NCBI GenBank assembly: GCA_963745075.1
Contig: CAVUWV010000017.1
Location: 1-64,000 of the forward strand
DNA from: Candidatus Hydrogenedentota bacterium
Lineage (GTDB): Bacteria; Hydrogenedentota; Hydrogenedentia; Hydrogenedentales; SLHB01
Length of the DNA: 64,000 nucleotides
Direction of reading: 5' to 3'
Below the pieces are notes generated by a model. The model was not told the DNA's origin. It searched no databases and saw only the letters and a list, made by a program, of their open reading frames with translations. Below, one piece after another: positions 1 through 46,851 of this stretch (its first letter is position 1; each line of letters begins with the position of its first letter). A program made the position numbers and the translations under genes.

Positions 1-241
1 TGCCGAACCACAGCAAGGGTAAAGCGCCCGCTGGATGACAACGCAACGCGGGGTCAAAGGCGGGCGCGGCTTCGTACGTGAGTAATCCCGCTGCGGTCCG
101 GCCGTTGCCCACGTGCTCTGCAATCGCTTCCAGACGCGGCAACACTTCGTCGATCCGGTGGGCCGTATAGACTTCCAGTGGTTCCCGGAAAGACCGCGAT
201 CCGGAACGGGAAACGAAAACTATGTCGCCGTACGCGCTCAC
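1..241 (-). CDS. pabB: Aminodeoxychorismate synthase component I, N-terminal part (runs off window start)
   Basis: Not in the ORF track. Manual translation from GTG at 241, preceded by GGAGG: MSAYGDIVF...FREPLEVYTAHRIDEVLPRLEAIAEHVGNGRTAAGLLTYEAAPAFDPAL...LPLLWFG, the typical PabB N-terminus (G-x-x-x-YEA and PLLWFG). Confidence 0.8.
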   Translation of the reverse strand, partial: MSAYGDIVFVSRSGSRSFREPLEVYTAHRIDEVLPRLEAIAEHVGNGRTAAGLLTYEAAPAFDPALRCHPAGALPLLWFG

Positions 242-344
242 GGGTATGGCCTCCAACAAGGGTGCTACATCGCAACCTCCGCGACAGCCTATCACCCCAC
301 TTGGCCGCCTTCAACGAACCTGGCAAACACGCCCGGTTGATTTC

Positions 345-3300
345 CTACGGATAGGCAACGGTTTCCGCGCCATCCAGATCCACGTGCCGCACCGATCCAT
401 CCGGCATGCGTATGTGGACGGTTCCGGCCCCGTTCAATCGCAGCTTCATGGAATTCCCGTCGTACGCGTCCACAACGACATTGACGGGGTCCACGGTTTC
501 GACTTGTACCGGGATTCGCGCCAGGATTGCCGCTTCATCCGGCCCGAGATCGATCTGCGTACGTACGGAATTTGCATCCGCCGTCGTCACAAAATCCGGC
601 CGTACCTGGTGTCCCCGCGGATCGTAGCGGTAGCCGACGTGCAAGTTGCGCGAACCCGGCCAGCCGTAGACGCCGCTGTGCAGCGTAACGATACGCTCCT
701 TTCCCCGAATGGTTCCGCTGTGCACCTCATCGACGGTGATGGGATACATGCGTGCCGGCATAGGTTCGTACGCGAGATGTTCGGGATCGCCGTAGAAGAA
801 GTAGAGGTTTCCCGCGCGCAGTTTGTTGCACACGTCGTGGTAGAGATCCTCGTCGGTCGTAATGGTGGACGGATTGCCAAGGGTGATTGGGGTCGGGGCG
901 AGGTGAACTTCGGGGCCTTCGTTCACCTCCCGGTCGATGATGAGCGGCAGGCTGCAAATGGTCCGCGTGGGCACCACCCCGTTGGCAATCACCACGCCTC
1001 CCTTGGCCCATACCTTCCGGCAGTAGGCGACCATCGCATCCTGGGTCAGCAGCAGCACAGATCCTTTCTTCCGTGTAATTGTCTTGGTGGCGGGATCAAT
1101 GTCGGCGCTGCGGCCGTCCCAGCGGTCATAGGTGTACGCGCCGCCGTAACCCCACAGAAAACCGTCCACAAAGGCACCGCGGCATCCGAGTTTGTCCATC
1201 ATAACGTCCACACTGTCGAGCATAGCCTTGCCGAAACTGTTGTCGAGGGTCGGGTAATAGATCCACCAGCGCCAATTGTCCGCCACGCGCGCGGGTGCGA
1301 AGTAGGAGCCATTCTCGTACGTATACGGATACACGACGTGATTGCCTTCCGCATCGATCACGCAGGAGTCGGCAAACCGTTCGTTGGGGCGGTTCGTTGC
1401 GTATAACTGTTGCGCAACATGAAACATCCCCTTGAGTCCCGGCCGATTCCGGTACATGGCGTCCATCATGGCGCGAATGTGGGCGCGTTCTTCGGGGTAC
1501 TCGGTAAATTCGATTCCCTCCACCGATACAGTTGGATCGTCGGTGCACCACGAAAGGCAGTAAATCGTCGCATACGCGGCGTTGCGGATGGCGTACCAAT
1601 CGGCATCCGGCACGAGACTGAGGTCGCGTTTGCGCTGCGTTCCGTGGACGAACGCCAGCGCGCCGTCCACGGTGACGTTGTTTCGGCCCTCGTCGCGCCG
1701 GATGGCATTGACGAAGTCGTAGTATTCGCCGGTTTCGTTCACATAGACAGCCCATTCCAGCGTGCGGGAAGCGCCCGCATCCAGCGCAAACTCGTCCGAA
1801 CCCAGGGCGATGCCGGAACCGTCGAAGTCGCCGCGCGCCTGGACAATGGACACGTCGTCCAGCGCAATAAGTCCCGCGCCCGAGTTGTCGAAACCGGCGA
1901 ATGTCGTCGGGCAGGACTTCAGTTCTCGGCTTGTAACCGGTTTGGAAACATTCTTCCCACCCAGCGAGGCGGCTGCTGAGACGCCGGAATTCCAGCGCAT
2001 CGTATTGCGGAAGATTATGCCCACCGGCTCCGGCGCAAGATTGGTGAACGTATCTGAGACCAGAATGCAGCCTGGTCGCCTTTCGATCCGTCGTTCCACG
2101 CGGTAGTAGCGGCCCGAACCCGTAACCTGCCAGGCTGAGGCGTCTCGCTGGAAAGTCTCTACACGCCACTCGGGTTCGCATCTATCGCCGGGCGCTGGTG
2201 AACTCGAAAACGTATTCGCGCCGCCTTGAGGGAACGAAAACGAGGACCGGACGTGCACCACCCGGTCCGCAAACGCGACATCGAATCCGCCCGAATCCGC
2301 CATGTGGACAATCGGTTCGGGCGCAGGCCGTTGCAGTGGAAGCGGACCCGCCGTGAAATCCTTCGGCAAAGGCACATCGAATGACTGTGCGGGATACGTA
2401 AACGGGATCGACGCCTCGACATTGCGGTTCGAACCGTCGACCGTGGATCGGAACGCATACCTCCCGTCTCTAAGACCGGCCAATTCGAAATCGGCCCAGA
2501 CGATCCCGCTGTTGGGCACGTCCTTCACCGCGGACTGCAAGACTGCGCCGCCGGGTCCTACCAATTGCAGCAAAGCCCGTTCTCCCGCCGCCAAGGGCTG
2601 CAGACCAAAGTAATCGGCCTCGACCCTTGCGGTGCGCTCGTCATCATAAATGAACGGTCGCACCCGGATCGTTCCGCGAGCACGGGTATCTTTTTGGAAT
2701 CGATCTGCGTTCACCCAGAAGTTCTCGGCGACCTCGGACCCGGTCAGCGCGCGGTCGAATATGGCCACTTCGTACATGCACCCGCCAAAGGATTGGCCGG
2801 GACTGGATATCTTCAGCGACATGGACCCGTTGCCCGGCGGTTTGACGGCAAAGGTTCCATCGGGTCGTCCATCCACGTACAGGGTCGCCGAATCCCCGCT
2901 GCAAACGACGCCAACCAGGAAGGTTTCCTTGTTCTGTAAGGCCGTTGCACCGAAACCGTACTGATCCGCGCCCTCTTGGCTGCTGCGATACATGAGTTTA
3001 GCCGTGGCGCCGTCGATGCGCAGGATGAATCCCTCCCGGCGATAATCCTCACAATCCACAACGGCCCAATTGGTTGCTTCGTCGGGATAGGGCGACGCAT
3101 CCAGGTGCAGCCAAGCGAGAATTGTCAGATTCGACTTTCCCCGCACAGCCGGCAAATCGCCGAGATCGACATAGTCGCCCTGGCCGTCGAAACAAAGCGC
3201 AGTTTGGCCGTTCCGATCGTGCCACGTTGCACCGACGATGGACCCGTTACTGCCTCCAACTCCATGGCCCTGAATCTGTTGGCCACTGCCTGCGTCGAAG

Positions 3301-44392: not shown

Positions 44393-44950
44393 TTACCGAC
44401 GAGCGGTATCAGTTCCAGTCGGCGTATATGACTGGCGTTGCGCGGCCTTGCGATCGGCTACCAGTTCCCCGGACACTTTGGCGTCTTTCGGCTCTTTCAC
44501 GTCAAACCCAATGGCCTCCCAGCGCGGGTCGTCGGGATCGAGACCGAGATGCTCGATGTACCCGCGCTCGGCTATGAAGCATTTGCCGTGGGCGGTCAGG
44601 AGGTAGCCGCCGTTTGCTTCCAGGTACGTGCGCGCTTCCTCGTGCGTTTTGCACCAGTTGTGCCAGAACGCGCTCGCACCGGGCGGACACCACAGCACGT
44701 CCGCCGCGTCTTTGAGGTTCTTCCACGCGGCGTACCCATGCTCGCGCGCGATAACCGCCAAGGCGTGTTTCCGCTGGATGCTGTCGCGCGCCGCCAGAAT
44801 CTCGTCCGTCGTTTGCTCTCGAAACGGCGCGATCCGCCGAAAACGTTCCGCCGCGCCGGCGGCAATGGAGGGTTGCGTGGACTGCAGATCTTTGAGCAGC
44901 AGCGATGCTTCGCGTTTGCACTTGTCGAGGGACGGAATGGGACGTGTCAT
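44393..44950 (-). CDS. Uncharacterised 185-aa protein with an N-terminal helical L..K.EA..LL...ALAVIAREHGY..W..LK module
   Basis: ATG 44950 with AAAGGA 8 nt upstream; C-terminal GGYLL...LGLDPDDPRW..IG..P.D. Confidence 0.75.
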   Translation of the reverse strand: MTRPIPSLDKCKREASLLLKDLQSTQPSIAAGAAERFRRIAPFREQTTDEILAARDSIQRKHALAVIAREHGYAAWKNLKDAADVLWCPPGASAFWHNWCKTHEEARTYLEANGGYLLTAHGKCFIAERGYIEHLGLDPDDPRWEAIGFDVKEPKDAKVSGELVADRKAAQRQSYTPTGTDTARR

Positions 44951-45076
44951 GAGATCGTTCCTTTGTTCGTAGTGTGGAACTAATCCGCATCGTCCACAAA
45001 GGAAACCTCTCACGTGATACATTCAGCGAGTCGGGAGTGATACCATCTTTCGCGGATGCGGCGCCTCCCAGCACCG
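44951..45076 (-). ncRNA. Candidate cis-regulatory leader RNA (riboswitch-like, family not recognised)
   Basis: A perfect 9-bp anti-SD/SD helix (44996-45004 with 44958-44966) competes with helices CCGCAUC/GAUGCGG and CGCGAAAG/CUUUGUG; sigma70 promoter immediately upstream. Confidence 0.5.
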
Positions 45077-45082
45077 GGCGCG

Positions 45083-45112
45083 AGTATAAGGCATTCAGGT
45101 GGCGTAGTGCAA
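45083..45112 (-). promoter_or_regulatory. Putative sigma70 promoter for the leader and the 185-aa gene
   Basis: Minus strand TTGCAC (45112-45107), 18 nt, TATACT (45088-45083). Confidence 0.6.
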
Positions 45113-45254
45113 ATTGGGCCCGATCGGAGACCTCGGTGACAGGAGAAGCACTATGGACTTCATTGGCGACACGGACGAGATGGAACACATGGACAAGCAT
45201 TGCGGAACACAAGCAATTCACAACGTCAATTCGTCCATCACATCCAAACTGTCC

Positions 45255-46851
45255 ATGGTGTCACTGGCCGTGCGGTTATTCTCGGCTTTGCTCTTCTGCA
45301 TGATCCCGGCGTTTGCGCAACGAACCGTGCCCCCGCTGGAAACCGGACCTTCCGCCGTAACGACGCTGGAACAAATGGCCACCCTTCCCGACGACGAAAT
45401 TGATCTTGCCCGGGCCGTGCTCGAGGTGGCCAAAGGGGTCAATTCTGCCGTAGATGTCGACCGTTACATCACCCTCCTCGATGAACTCGCCGACGAGATG
45501 CAACGGCGGTTGACCAATCGGACGAATCCACGAGACCAACTCCGCGTCATGGCCGTGACCATCTTTCGTGACTGGGGGTTCGGACGCAGCGACGTGGTTG
45601 CGCCGGACGTGTACGTCGGGTTCAACGAAGTCCTGGACCAACAGCAATGGAACTGCTTCGGCCTGTCCGTGCTCTACGTTACCCTGGGCGAGCGCCTCGG
45701 GATTCCCCTGCATATGGTCGCCGGAAGGGGGCATGTTCTCGTCGAGTACACGGGATCGCCTGCGCTCTTCGTCGAAACCACCGACAAAGGTCGCATTCAC
45801 GAAAGCAAGGACTACCTGGCCGACTATCTCCCGTTTCCCTGTGTGCGTCCCGAAGACTTCACGCTCTTGAACAAAAAGGAAACGGTCGCCGTTGTGCTGA
45901 CGCAGACCGCTCTTGCCGTACAGAATCGCAAGCAGTTGGATCTAGCCCGCGACTACTACACCCTCGCCCTGAAGTTCGATCCGAAGGATGCCGAAGCGTT
46001 CAGCGGACTGGGTTTTCTCGCCTTGAACGCCGGACGTGCAAACGACGCCATCGCCGAATTTCGACATGCGATTGACGCCAATCCGCAGTACCGCGAAGCG
46101 TACGGTGGTCTCGGCGCCGCACTCTACGCCACCGGCGATTTTGCTGGCGCCGCAGATGCGTACCGGAAGGCCATTGAGCAATGCGCGGAAGAGCCCAAGG
46201 CGGTGTTTAATCTCGCGCAGATTCTCTATGAAACGGGCGACCTGCAAAAGTCAGCGGAACTATTCCGGAAATACACGCGGTTGGCTCCGGGCGACCCCGA
46301 CGGCTATGCGCGTCTGGCCTTTCCGCTCGAAGACTCCGGCGATCTGGACGGAGCGCTCGCGGCCTACCGCACGGCCATCCAATTGAATCCACACTATGTG
46401 GACGCGTACATCAACATGGGATTGGTGTACGAGAAGAAAGGTCTCTTGGATACTGCGCGGCAGTCCTTTGAACAAGCCATCCGTCTGCAGCCCAACAGCG
46501 CACTTGCATACGACGGTCTGGCCCGTGTCTTCCACGCGCAGAAGAACGATCAACAGGCCCTTGCCGCGATCGCGCGTGCGGCACAGATCGATCCATCCAA
46601 CGGAACGGTTTGGCTGGACTACGGAGCGATCCTTCGTGATACGGGCGATGTCGACCGGGCCATTGAGTCGTATCAACGCGCCGCGTCGCTGCTATCCTGA
46701 CGATCCGGAAGCGTTCGAGGCGCTGGCGGAGATTCACCTGAAACGGGGGGATACGGACGCTGCGAGAACTGCCGCGCAGCGCGCTTCCGATTTGGGCGCC
46801 GATCTGTCGCCGGCGTTGCAGAAGTTACTGCCTTCGCCAAAGCAACAATGA
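45255..46851 (+). CDS. Secreted SirB1/transglutaminase-like plus multi-TPR protein; +1 frameshift near 46692 separates the last TPR
   Basis: IDLARAVL, NCFGLSVLYVTLGERLGIPL, GHVLV, FVETT, then tandem TPRs. The frame stops at 46700, but YPDDPEAFEALAEIHLKRGD... continues the TPR pattern in the next frame to 46851. Confidence 0.82.

Follow-up and report, generated by a model that had tools for sequence, protein, structure and literature searches.

The DNA analyzed here, called the window, is a whole stretch of 64,000 nucleotides from a Candidatus Hydrogenedentota bacterium (GenBank assembly GCA_963745075.1, contig CAVUWV010000017.1). On its minus strand, a leader RNA lies 5' of the P0001 ORF (185 aa, 44950-44393), and all the motifs that an earlier note on this DNA had named in the leader were located on that strand where the note had placed them (Table 1). 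Downstream of P0001 (44322-43688, minus strand), a 77-aa ORF overlaps a 134-aa PIN-domain ORF (PF01850); this couple looks like a vapBC-type toxin-antitoxin pair and is absent from the neighbors common to other loci. On the other side, a divergent plus-strand gene (45114-46700) codes for numerous TPR repeats alongside a transglutaminase-like core (PF13369); it begins close to the -35 box of the leader, and the promoters may overlap. Control of this TPR gene by the leader was considered and rejected, as the upstream neighbors vary among loci and a U.G/C-G pair of the leader (see below) fits the minus strand only.

Table 1. Features of the leader and of P0001 in the window, from the promoter to the coding sequence.
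Feature	Position	Strand	Remark
-35-like hexamer TTGCAC	45107..45112	-	3/6 to consensus TTGACA
-10 hexamer TATACT	45083..45088	-	box recurs in 41/62 homologs
P1 5' strand GGUGC	45071..45075	-	P1 93.3% paired, two-sided change in 3/5 pairs
PK1 5' strand GGGAG, within P1 loop	45065..45069	-	two-sided change in 5/5 pairs
P1 3' strand GCGCC	45060..45064	-	G-C-C conserved in 68-69/69
PK2 5' strand AUCCGC	45052..45057	-	covariation and pairing tests
GAAA junction	45048..45051	-	last two A invariant in 69/69 main-type leaders
P3 hairpin GAU-GGU-AUC	45039..45047	-	96.5% paired; third pair with two-sided change in 31 sequences
Single purine (45038), then PK1 3' strand CUCCC	45033..45038	-	homolog alignment
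Variable, mostly unpaired linker; possible 30S standby region	45005..45032	-	at least 19 nt in 56/63
Anti-SD strand UUCCUUU (P4a 5')	44998..45004	-	92.9% paired
P4b hairpin GUGGA (44997-44993) / UCCAC (44978-44974)	44974..44997	-	fold and 16 close homologs
PK2 3' strand GCGGAU in P4b loop	44988-44983	-	pairs with AUCCGC
SD-containing strand AAAGGAA (P4a 3')	44958..44964	-	pairs with UUCCUUU
P0001 coding sequence, 185 aa, two domains	44393..44950	-	C-domain about residues 86-175, no known family, net acidic
N-terminal domain of P0001, ~85 residues, five helices, basic (pI 9.6)	44696..44950	-	putative RNA partner

The earlier note had proposed a promoter, TTGCAC-18-TATACT. Its position was supported by the homologs, since a TAnnnT box ends 4 to 9 nt 5' of helix P1 in 41 of 62 of them and occurs in only 3 to 5 of 62 in six control windows farther upstream. 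Hexamers that start with TTG recur at the -35 spacing, with at least four of six matches in 23 of the 41 homologs that carry the -10 box. The match to the consensus did not hold up, however: a consensus promoter scan of the region returned 0 promoters, and TTGCAC itself has 3 of the 6 bases. From the sequence we infer a transcript start at about 45078-45076, directly 5' of P1, and because the -10 box lies so near P1, the RNA would be the whole 5' UTR. No terminator-like site was found in the leader. An upstream ORF was rejected as a candidate, as some upstream ATG is present in 40 of 69 leaders, but these are scattered across the core and tail; the in-frame ATG at 45022 of the window falls within the variable linker.

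Covariation supports an H-type pseudoknot at the 5' end of the leader

The P0001 sequence gave 67 matches at E<=0.001, itself included, and its closest named homologs are Hydrogenedentota. Loci were drawn from 135 genomes of the Hydrogenedentota phylum and from the best 80 of 386 metagenome relatives. The leader was present at 70 of the 80 metagenome loci; seven loci are cut by a contig end and three lack all or part of the RNA, which gives 70 of 73 testable loci. Two of the three, L081 and L104, have no leader RNA, and L048 has the 3' half only. Compared with its close relative L047, L048 (positions 1-172) has kept the 3' hairpin and lost the 5' pseudoknot domain, a natural deletion. Removal of near-duplicates left 70 leaders, 69 of which entered the sequence-only alignment A2, with L100 excluded for its long linker.

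In A2, helices P1, PK1, and P3 together were 94.7% paired and 10 of their 13 pairs showed two-sided changes. None of 500 shuffles reached this level, a count that is not a probability because the homologs are related and non-independent, and helices slid along the alignment were 43 to 56% paired. The GGGAG/CUCCC pseudoknot (PK1), mentioned earlier as a possibility, turned out to be among the best supported helices, with two-sided changes at every pair. RNAalifold applied to the sequence alignment gave PK1 alone because the 3' half was misaligned. Since ViennaRNA cannot score pseudoknots, the folding energies reported here omit PK1 and PK2; the full leader folds at -44.2 kcal/mol with a modest z of -1.84, and the 3' hairpin alone has a z of -3.13. 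One P1 pair is U.G in 45 leaders and C-G in 24, which identifies the minus strand as the folded one.

The comparative data show a predicted H-type pseudoknot in the 5' ~45 nt, formed by P1 and PK1, whose long connecting loop holds a helix strand, an A-rich junction, and the P3 hairpin. Conservation is high in the main subtype of the leader, where conservation reaches at least 97% at 11 of the 14 core positions tabulated, and we infer that the invariant junction adenines make an A-minor contact to P1. On the strength of sequence comparison, the leader is a real, conserved, structured RNA family found in several bacterial groups.

The Rfam 15 covariance models, applied at E values up to 10 in the window and 5 to 10 elsewhere, produced no match overlapping the leader in the window or in sets of 19 and 18 further loci, 38 sources in all; the earlier note likewise could match the leader to no riboswitch class. 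The same search bears on the idea that the leader cleaves itself, is a processing RNA, or stabilizes the 5' end of the message. Its P1, zero-gap loop pseudoknot, and A-rich junction resemble the 5' module of the pistol ribozyme, and the RNA does lie at the very 5' end; yet permissive E values gave no Rfam ribozyme match in the 38 sources, no conserved bases follow PK1, where a catalytic junction would lie, and the pairing of the Shine-Dalgarno (SD) sequence is conserved. We consider this explanation extremely improbable.

The 5' domain is predicted to dock onto a hairpin that pairs the SD sequence

A second pseudoknot, PK2, of at least 5 bp could be formed in 61 of 69 leaders, in each case within a stem of at least 4 bp. 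PK2 was 78% paired, compared with 25 to 46% for slid helices, on a model-fitted alignment whose model had omitted PK2 and in which some rows are misaligned, and the leaders' own PK2 pairings were better than GC-matched cross pairings in 63 of 69. Among 16 close homologs, the AUCCGC/GCGGAU register was 98.9% paired and the full six-helix model 93.7% paired. The helix proposed earlier to occlude the SD was supported: P4a is well paired, and the mean unpaired probability of the SD was 0.18 compared with 0.38 when the tails were shuffled, being lower in 56 of 69 leaders. In the proposed OFF fold, UGUGGA (44998-44993), the suggested extension of this SD pairing, overlaps the 9-nt anti-SD at 44996-44998, so that at least one of the two helices must be shorter than drawn.

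Between PK1 and the anti-SD lies a variable spacer of about 19 to 37 nt; its length, at least 19 nt in 56 of 63 leaders, would be enough for PK2 and the SD stem to form together. The first 19 nt of this linker are more than half unpaired in 54 of 69 leaders, with a pyrimidine fraction of 0.52, i.e., not pyrimidine-rich. P1, PK1, P3, PK2, and the SD hairpin are all mutually compatible, and the pairing tests show a predicted architecture in which PK2 joins the 5' domain to the loop of a 3' hairpin, with the SD paired in the outer stem of that hairpin. In the main subtype, docking raised the calculated cost of opening the ribosome-binding site (RBS) by an average of about 1.6 kcal/mol, and no clear ON or OFF direction follows from simple thermodynamics.

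The earlier note had pictured the leader as a switch between two exclusive folds, and this part was largely unsupported, since the ON fold lacks covariation and is not family-wide. The CCGCAUC/GAUGCGG register of its long-range helix is not conserved; the conserved register is AUCCGC (45057-45052) with GCGGAU (44988-44983), and the helix, shifted to that register, becomes the pseudoknot onto the loop of the SD hairpin and is compatible with the OFF hairpin. The second ON helix, CGCGAAAG (8 nt) with CUUUGUG (7 nt), can pair only with a bulge; it was 92.7% paired in the close homologs, without covariation. Neither ON helix showed a two-sided change in the 16 close homologs, the ON register breaks P1, and the ON fold together with the linker hairpin was 70.3% paired in this set, no better than shuffles (230 of 500). 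The CUCGC/GUGAG linker hairpin was 41% paired and is not conserved. As for the repeated heptamer GUAUCAC, its second copy lies in the variable linker and the window holds five copies where 4.07 are expected. The suggested check of homolog leaders for covariation gave a split answer, positive for P1, PK1, P3, PK2, and the SD hairpin and negative for the ON fold.

The switch can also be considered as a kinetic one, in which the PK2/GAAAG strand would capture the anti-SD during transcription in an ON fold that excludes the SD hairpin. In the window, no SD-free fold is better, and it is the predicted minimum-energy fold of nascent transcripts ending at 44995-44965, until the SD strand is made; the high pairing of the capturing helix in the close homologs runs through invariant columns. 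The duplex energy of capture was better than with a shuffled anti-SD in 48 of 69 leaders, but their own pairs had no advantage over GC-matched cross pairs (33 of 69, compared with 63 of 69 for PK2). In the full window leader, the ON fold lies about 9.4 kcal/mol above the OFF ensemble, only 17 of the 69 best RBS-open folds contained the capturing helix, and a shuffled 5' domain was no less able to open the RBS than the real one (p=0.47, 69 leaders). We therefore find a switch of this kind distinctly improbable, with anti-SD capture possible as a clade-specific kinetic intermediate.

The RNA accompanies one N-terminal domain

To follow the RNA, we used two models, R1 and R2, on one phylum and four plasmid records, scoring 24 candidates per genome, a scope within which copies before other genes could be missed. 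R1 found one strong copy in the genome of the window and 23 places at E<=0.01 in the 135 genomes of the phylum, 17 of them directly 5' of genes encoding the N-terminal domain of P0001 (N-domain). The other six scored 21 to 36 bits and resemble the 5' half only. Weak R1 matches of 15 to 36 bits (L111, L112, L130, and L132-L136, with L113 and L114 left out) were likewise limited to the 5' half and were rejected as chance. R2 gave 12 matches in the phylum and four more in three plasmid records, all 5' of N-domain genes; 7 of the 12, and 11 of the 16 overall, are training sequences. Two RNA-first matches lay outside the training set, L131 (R1) and L146, and both led to new N-domain fusions, that of L131 being 421 aa long. 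No strong copy of the RNA was found before a gene lacking the N-domain in the one phylum and four plasmid records searched.

Starting from the protein, an N-domain profile identified 22 places in 20 of the 135 phylum genomes. The RNA was present at 19, one is cut by a contig end, and the two without RNA have the weakest, degenerate N-domains. The same topology recurs in plasmid-collection records from Alpha-, Beta-, and Gammaproteobacteria, Actinomycetota, and Gemmatimonadota, where the carriers encode the N-domain fused to ankyrin repeats, leucine-rich repeats (LRRs), or DUF1835. A descriptor independent of sequence recognized 11 of 13 distal leaders (two of them from the phylum), none of five RNA-less genes, and 5 of 78 shuffles, and covariation persists in the distal-leader set. 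In Janthinobacterium, an operonic homolog whose N-domain is the most diverged has no RNA, and two of three RNA-less family members have N-domain scores inside the range of RNA-bearing ones. Gene neighbors are not conserved, none being common to more than four loci, and two patterns and one protein query found no match in viral contigs.

Taken together, these searches show, for the sequences covered, that the RNA appears to travel with one N-terminal domain whatever C-terminal domain follows. Among the loci themselves, L140 carries a group II intron fragment (RF01999, 105 bits; 238-355, minus strand) about 1 kb upstream of its leader. In L139 (1501 onward), a 427-aa ankyrin ORF diverges from its 555-aa relatives after about residue 350, which suggests a frameshift or a sequencing error.

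The N-domain is a widespread, basic module on unrelated partners

An AlphaFold2 model of P0001 was confident (pLDDT 92.7) and has two domains. P0001 scored 15.3 bits against PF20066 (Glyoxalase_8), under the gathering cut-off of 23.7, and PF20066 faintly matched 24 of 52 members at E<=0.1 (best 1.4e-4); the literature searched returned no paper on this accession. For the N-domain there was a faint OST-HTH/LOTUS match in 3 of 19 members (best E 0.083), and no known RNA-binding family scored above threshold. Fold searches gave no clear match, with a best Z of 4.6 for the whole protein and 3.8 for the N-domain, which does not speak for a new fold; Foldseek gave none at E<0.001, a PDB sequence search returned nothing significant, and Atlas matches at >=0.9 were to unnamed clusters only.

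The N-domain profile matched 3,148 representative clusters (50% identity, E<=0.001), many of whose representatives contain two or three matched stretches of the domain. The net charge of the N-domain has a median of +4 and is positive in 88% of 68 members, and that of the C-domain has a median of -2. A survey of 47 longer proteins (46 of 150 listed, plus L131) found the N-domain fused to ankyrin, Clp-N with a ClpX zinc finger, FliG-C, VOC, winged-helix, and DUF5701 domains, and most fused regions have no Pfam match. These C-domains are unrelated in function, and no transporters occur among the named ones. At least two N-domain copies per protein are present in L146 (W01 ~1000344-1000838) and L144, in LRR and ankyrin fusions. 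A GIY-YIG-named domain forms a separate ORF after the P0001-like gene in L038, L044, L059, and L095 and is fused to it in myxobacterial proteins (L046, L075; P0043, P0068-P0072). In L174 (508 onward), the N-domain is fused to a 581-aa region bearing an SGNRSLH motif, which we take to recall archaeo-eukaryotic primase/LigD polymerase domains.

A rearranged subtype precedes VOC fusions in rhizobia

Five rhizobial genes for N-domain-VOC fusions have leaders (L141, L143, L145, L147, and L148) that retain P1, PK1, and P3, have the PK2 helix remade as a local hairpin, and are without the SD hairpin. That the helix is rebuilt locally indicates that it belongs to the core. In all five, a nested alternative was predicted to pair the start region from -14 to +3, and core folding was predicted to lower the cost of opening the RBS from 7.6-15.9 to 2.8-4.9 kcal/mol. 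These calculations suggest that the folded core may favor translation. Mutually exclusive conformations are thus predicted in five of five VOC leaders, all from rhizobial kin, while none that is conserved was found in the main subtype. The junction bases also differ between the two subtypes.

The VOC leaders bring up most directly the explanation that the RNA is an orphan riboswitch, in which the P1/PK1/P3 junction would be the pocket for a small molecule or ion, PK2 would complete the aptamer, and the N-domain genes would be a regulon answering the same signal. The VOC subtype has the predicted layout of a textbook ON platform in all five leaders, but that case comes from five rhizobial relatives, and the main subtype, where SD pairing would supply an expression platform, has no conserved alternative fold. 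The RNA spans several phyla, with two pseudoknots and 11 near-invariant core bases in the main subtype, and accords with the "sophisticated RNA" rule of thumb quoted in PMC5737381. A metabolite pocket fits poorly with junction bases that are not invariant across subtypes and with C-domains that have no pathway in common and, as far as they are named, no transporters among them. We hold a riboswitch to be somewhat unlikely, though it is the chief alternative.

Discussion

The reading we prefer, at a little short of an even chance, is that the leader is a translational operator bound by the N-terminal domain of its own gene product and tuned by the C-terminal domain. The basic N-domain would bind the folded core of its own mRNA and shut off initiation, and the variable C-terminal domain would sense a signal or a partner and thereby set N-domain binding, making an RNA-level one-component autoregulator. 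The folded pseudoknot and the linker would let the 30S subunit and S1 initiate despite the hidden SD, as in the tisB and timP precedents, and the protein would compete for this folded, initiation-competent form of the leader. A core that serves initiation and is blocked by protein would reconcile the main and VOC subtypes.

Judged by gene context, a protein partner is more plausible than a metabolite. What stays constant downstream is the N-domain rather than a pathway, and the junction bases shift, which makes the N-domain the likeliest partner; variation of those bases between subtypes is as expected for a co-evolving protein. Leader and gene are co-inherited, so linkage alone does not prove contact. 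Several findings count against autoregulation: the N-domain resembles no known RNA-binding family above threshold, the core-dependent RBS opening of the VOC leaders reads most simply as an ON riboswitch, the near-invariant core positions of the main subtype are aptamer-like, and two of the three RNA-less members have kept N-domain scores in the RNA-bearing range.

The same layout could serve initiation with no binding by the product. The 5' pseudoknot and linker would then be a constitutive or slow-folding standby element for S1/30S that keeps the expression of a possibly harmful protein low and delayed, any control coming from an sRNA or folding kinetics. The tisB layout, with its 5' pseudoknot, single-stranded region, and hidden RBS, is the same (PMC7708055), and timP, with its SD trapped, needs a 7-bp long-range pseudoknot for translation (PMC11228461); the linker is mostly unpaired in 54 of 69 leaders and has at least 19 nt in 56 of 63. 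Yet this linker is not pyrimidine-rich, the products are soluble-looking proteins of 170 to 750 aa rather than small membrane toxins, and a standby element offers no reason for the RNA to keep to a single N-terminal domain when the fusions are otherwise unrelated. We judge it improbable.

Extending autoregulation by the N-domain to the whole family, we propose tentatively, at rather less than an even chance, that these genes are unrecognized, multi-phylum RNA-level one-component regulators. Each would join a new RNA-binding domain of ~85 residues to sensor or decoy domains and would have its cognate operator, a double pseudoknot that both permits initiation where the SD is hidden and can be closed by the protein. 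Ankyrin, LRR, VOC, Clp-N/ClpX zinc finger, FliG-C, DUF1835, DUF5701, and GIY-YIG domains would be the sensor/decoy candidates.

Relation to known systems

Few bacterial leaders with two pseudoknots are both widespread and absent from Rfam, and RNAs of this kind have often proved to be new riboswitch classes or protein-bound operators. If the leader is a riboswitch, it would be a new ligand-sensing class; if it is bound by protein, it would give a function to a large uncharacterized domain family and define a modular unit of control made of RNA and protein. Being short, with natural compensatory variants and a rearranged subtype, the element is directly testable; Rhizobium, Sinorhizobium, Variovorax, and Gemmatirosa are culturable carriers, and the rhizobial VOC subtype is a short, culturable test case.

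The motif is undescribed in the literature searched, which took in few subscription journals and, for PMC5737381 and PMC11109978, the articles apart from supplements that may list it. The accessible part of the PMC2864571 supplement contains neither "glyoxalase" nor "ankyrin," and the Solibacter-1, Rhodopirellula-1, and Rhizobiales-1 sequences in that part look unlike the leader. Likewise, the motif was not found in one short supplementary file of PMC8632094. The proposal that this is an undescribed, structured leader that pairs the RBS is upheld, the RNA being conserved, covarying, and without an Rfam match.

Close mechanistic parallels are tisB, in which initiation at a hidden SD depends on a pseudoknot (PMC7708055), and timP, in which a pseudoknot is required for initiation at a trapped SD (PMC11228461). 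All three have a 5'-end or long-range pseudoknot, an upstream unstructured region, and an SD in a stable hairpin, with pseudoknot and hairpin compatible; for the leader, this arrangement of 5' pseudoknot, single-stranded region, and sequestered SD is computational. Unlike tisB and timP, the leader has two pseudoknots and an embedded hairpin, is multi-phylum, and shows no sequence family match. They control a small toxin ORF with a type I antitoxin sRNA, whereas here the product is a 185-aa two-domain protein and no antitoxin sRNA is known.

Ribosomal-protein leaders, for example the S15 pseudoknot, are autogenous protein-binding leaders. The leader resembles such "protein binding candidates" (PMC11109978) in being a structured 5' UTR next to the gene of the likely binder, with putative translational control. 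It differs in its putative partner, an uncharacterized domain on unrelated C-domains rather than a ribosomal or known nucleic-acid-binding protein. Within the one phylum and four plasmid records, the RNA lies directly 5' of the gene of the candidate binder, and only there.

Among riboswitches, preQ1-II and preQ1-III are H-type pseudoknots with a hairpin inserted in the last loop and act on the RBS, and the ZTP riboswitch has a 5' domain, a variable linker, and a 3' hairpin whose loop docks by a pseudoknot. The leader shares the inserted-hairpin pseudoknot of the former, the linker-docking layout of the latter, and putative RBS control, but it has other conserved bases, no queuosine, purine, or folate genes, and no Rfam match. 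As judged from sequence and covariation, it adds a new family of cis-regulatory RNAs to an already known kind of control.
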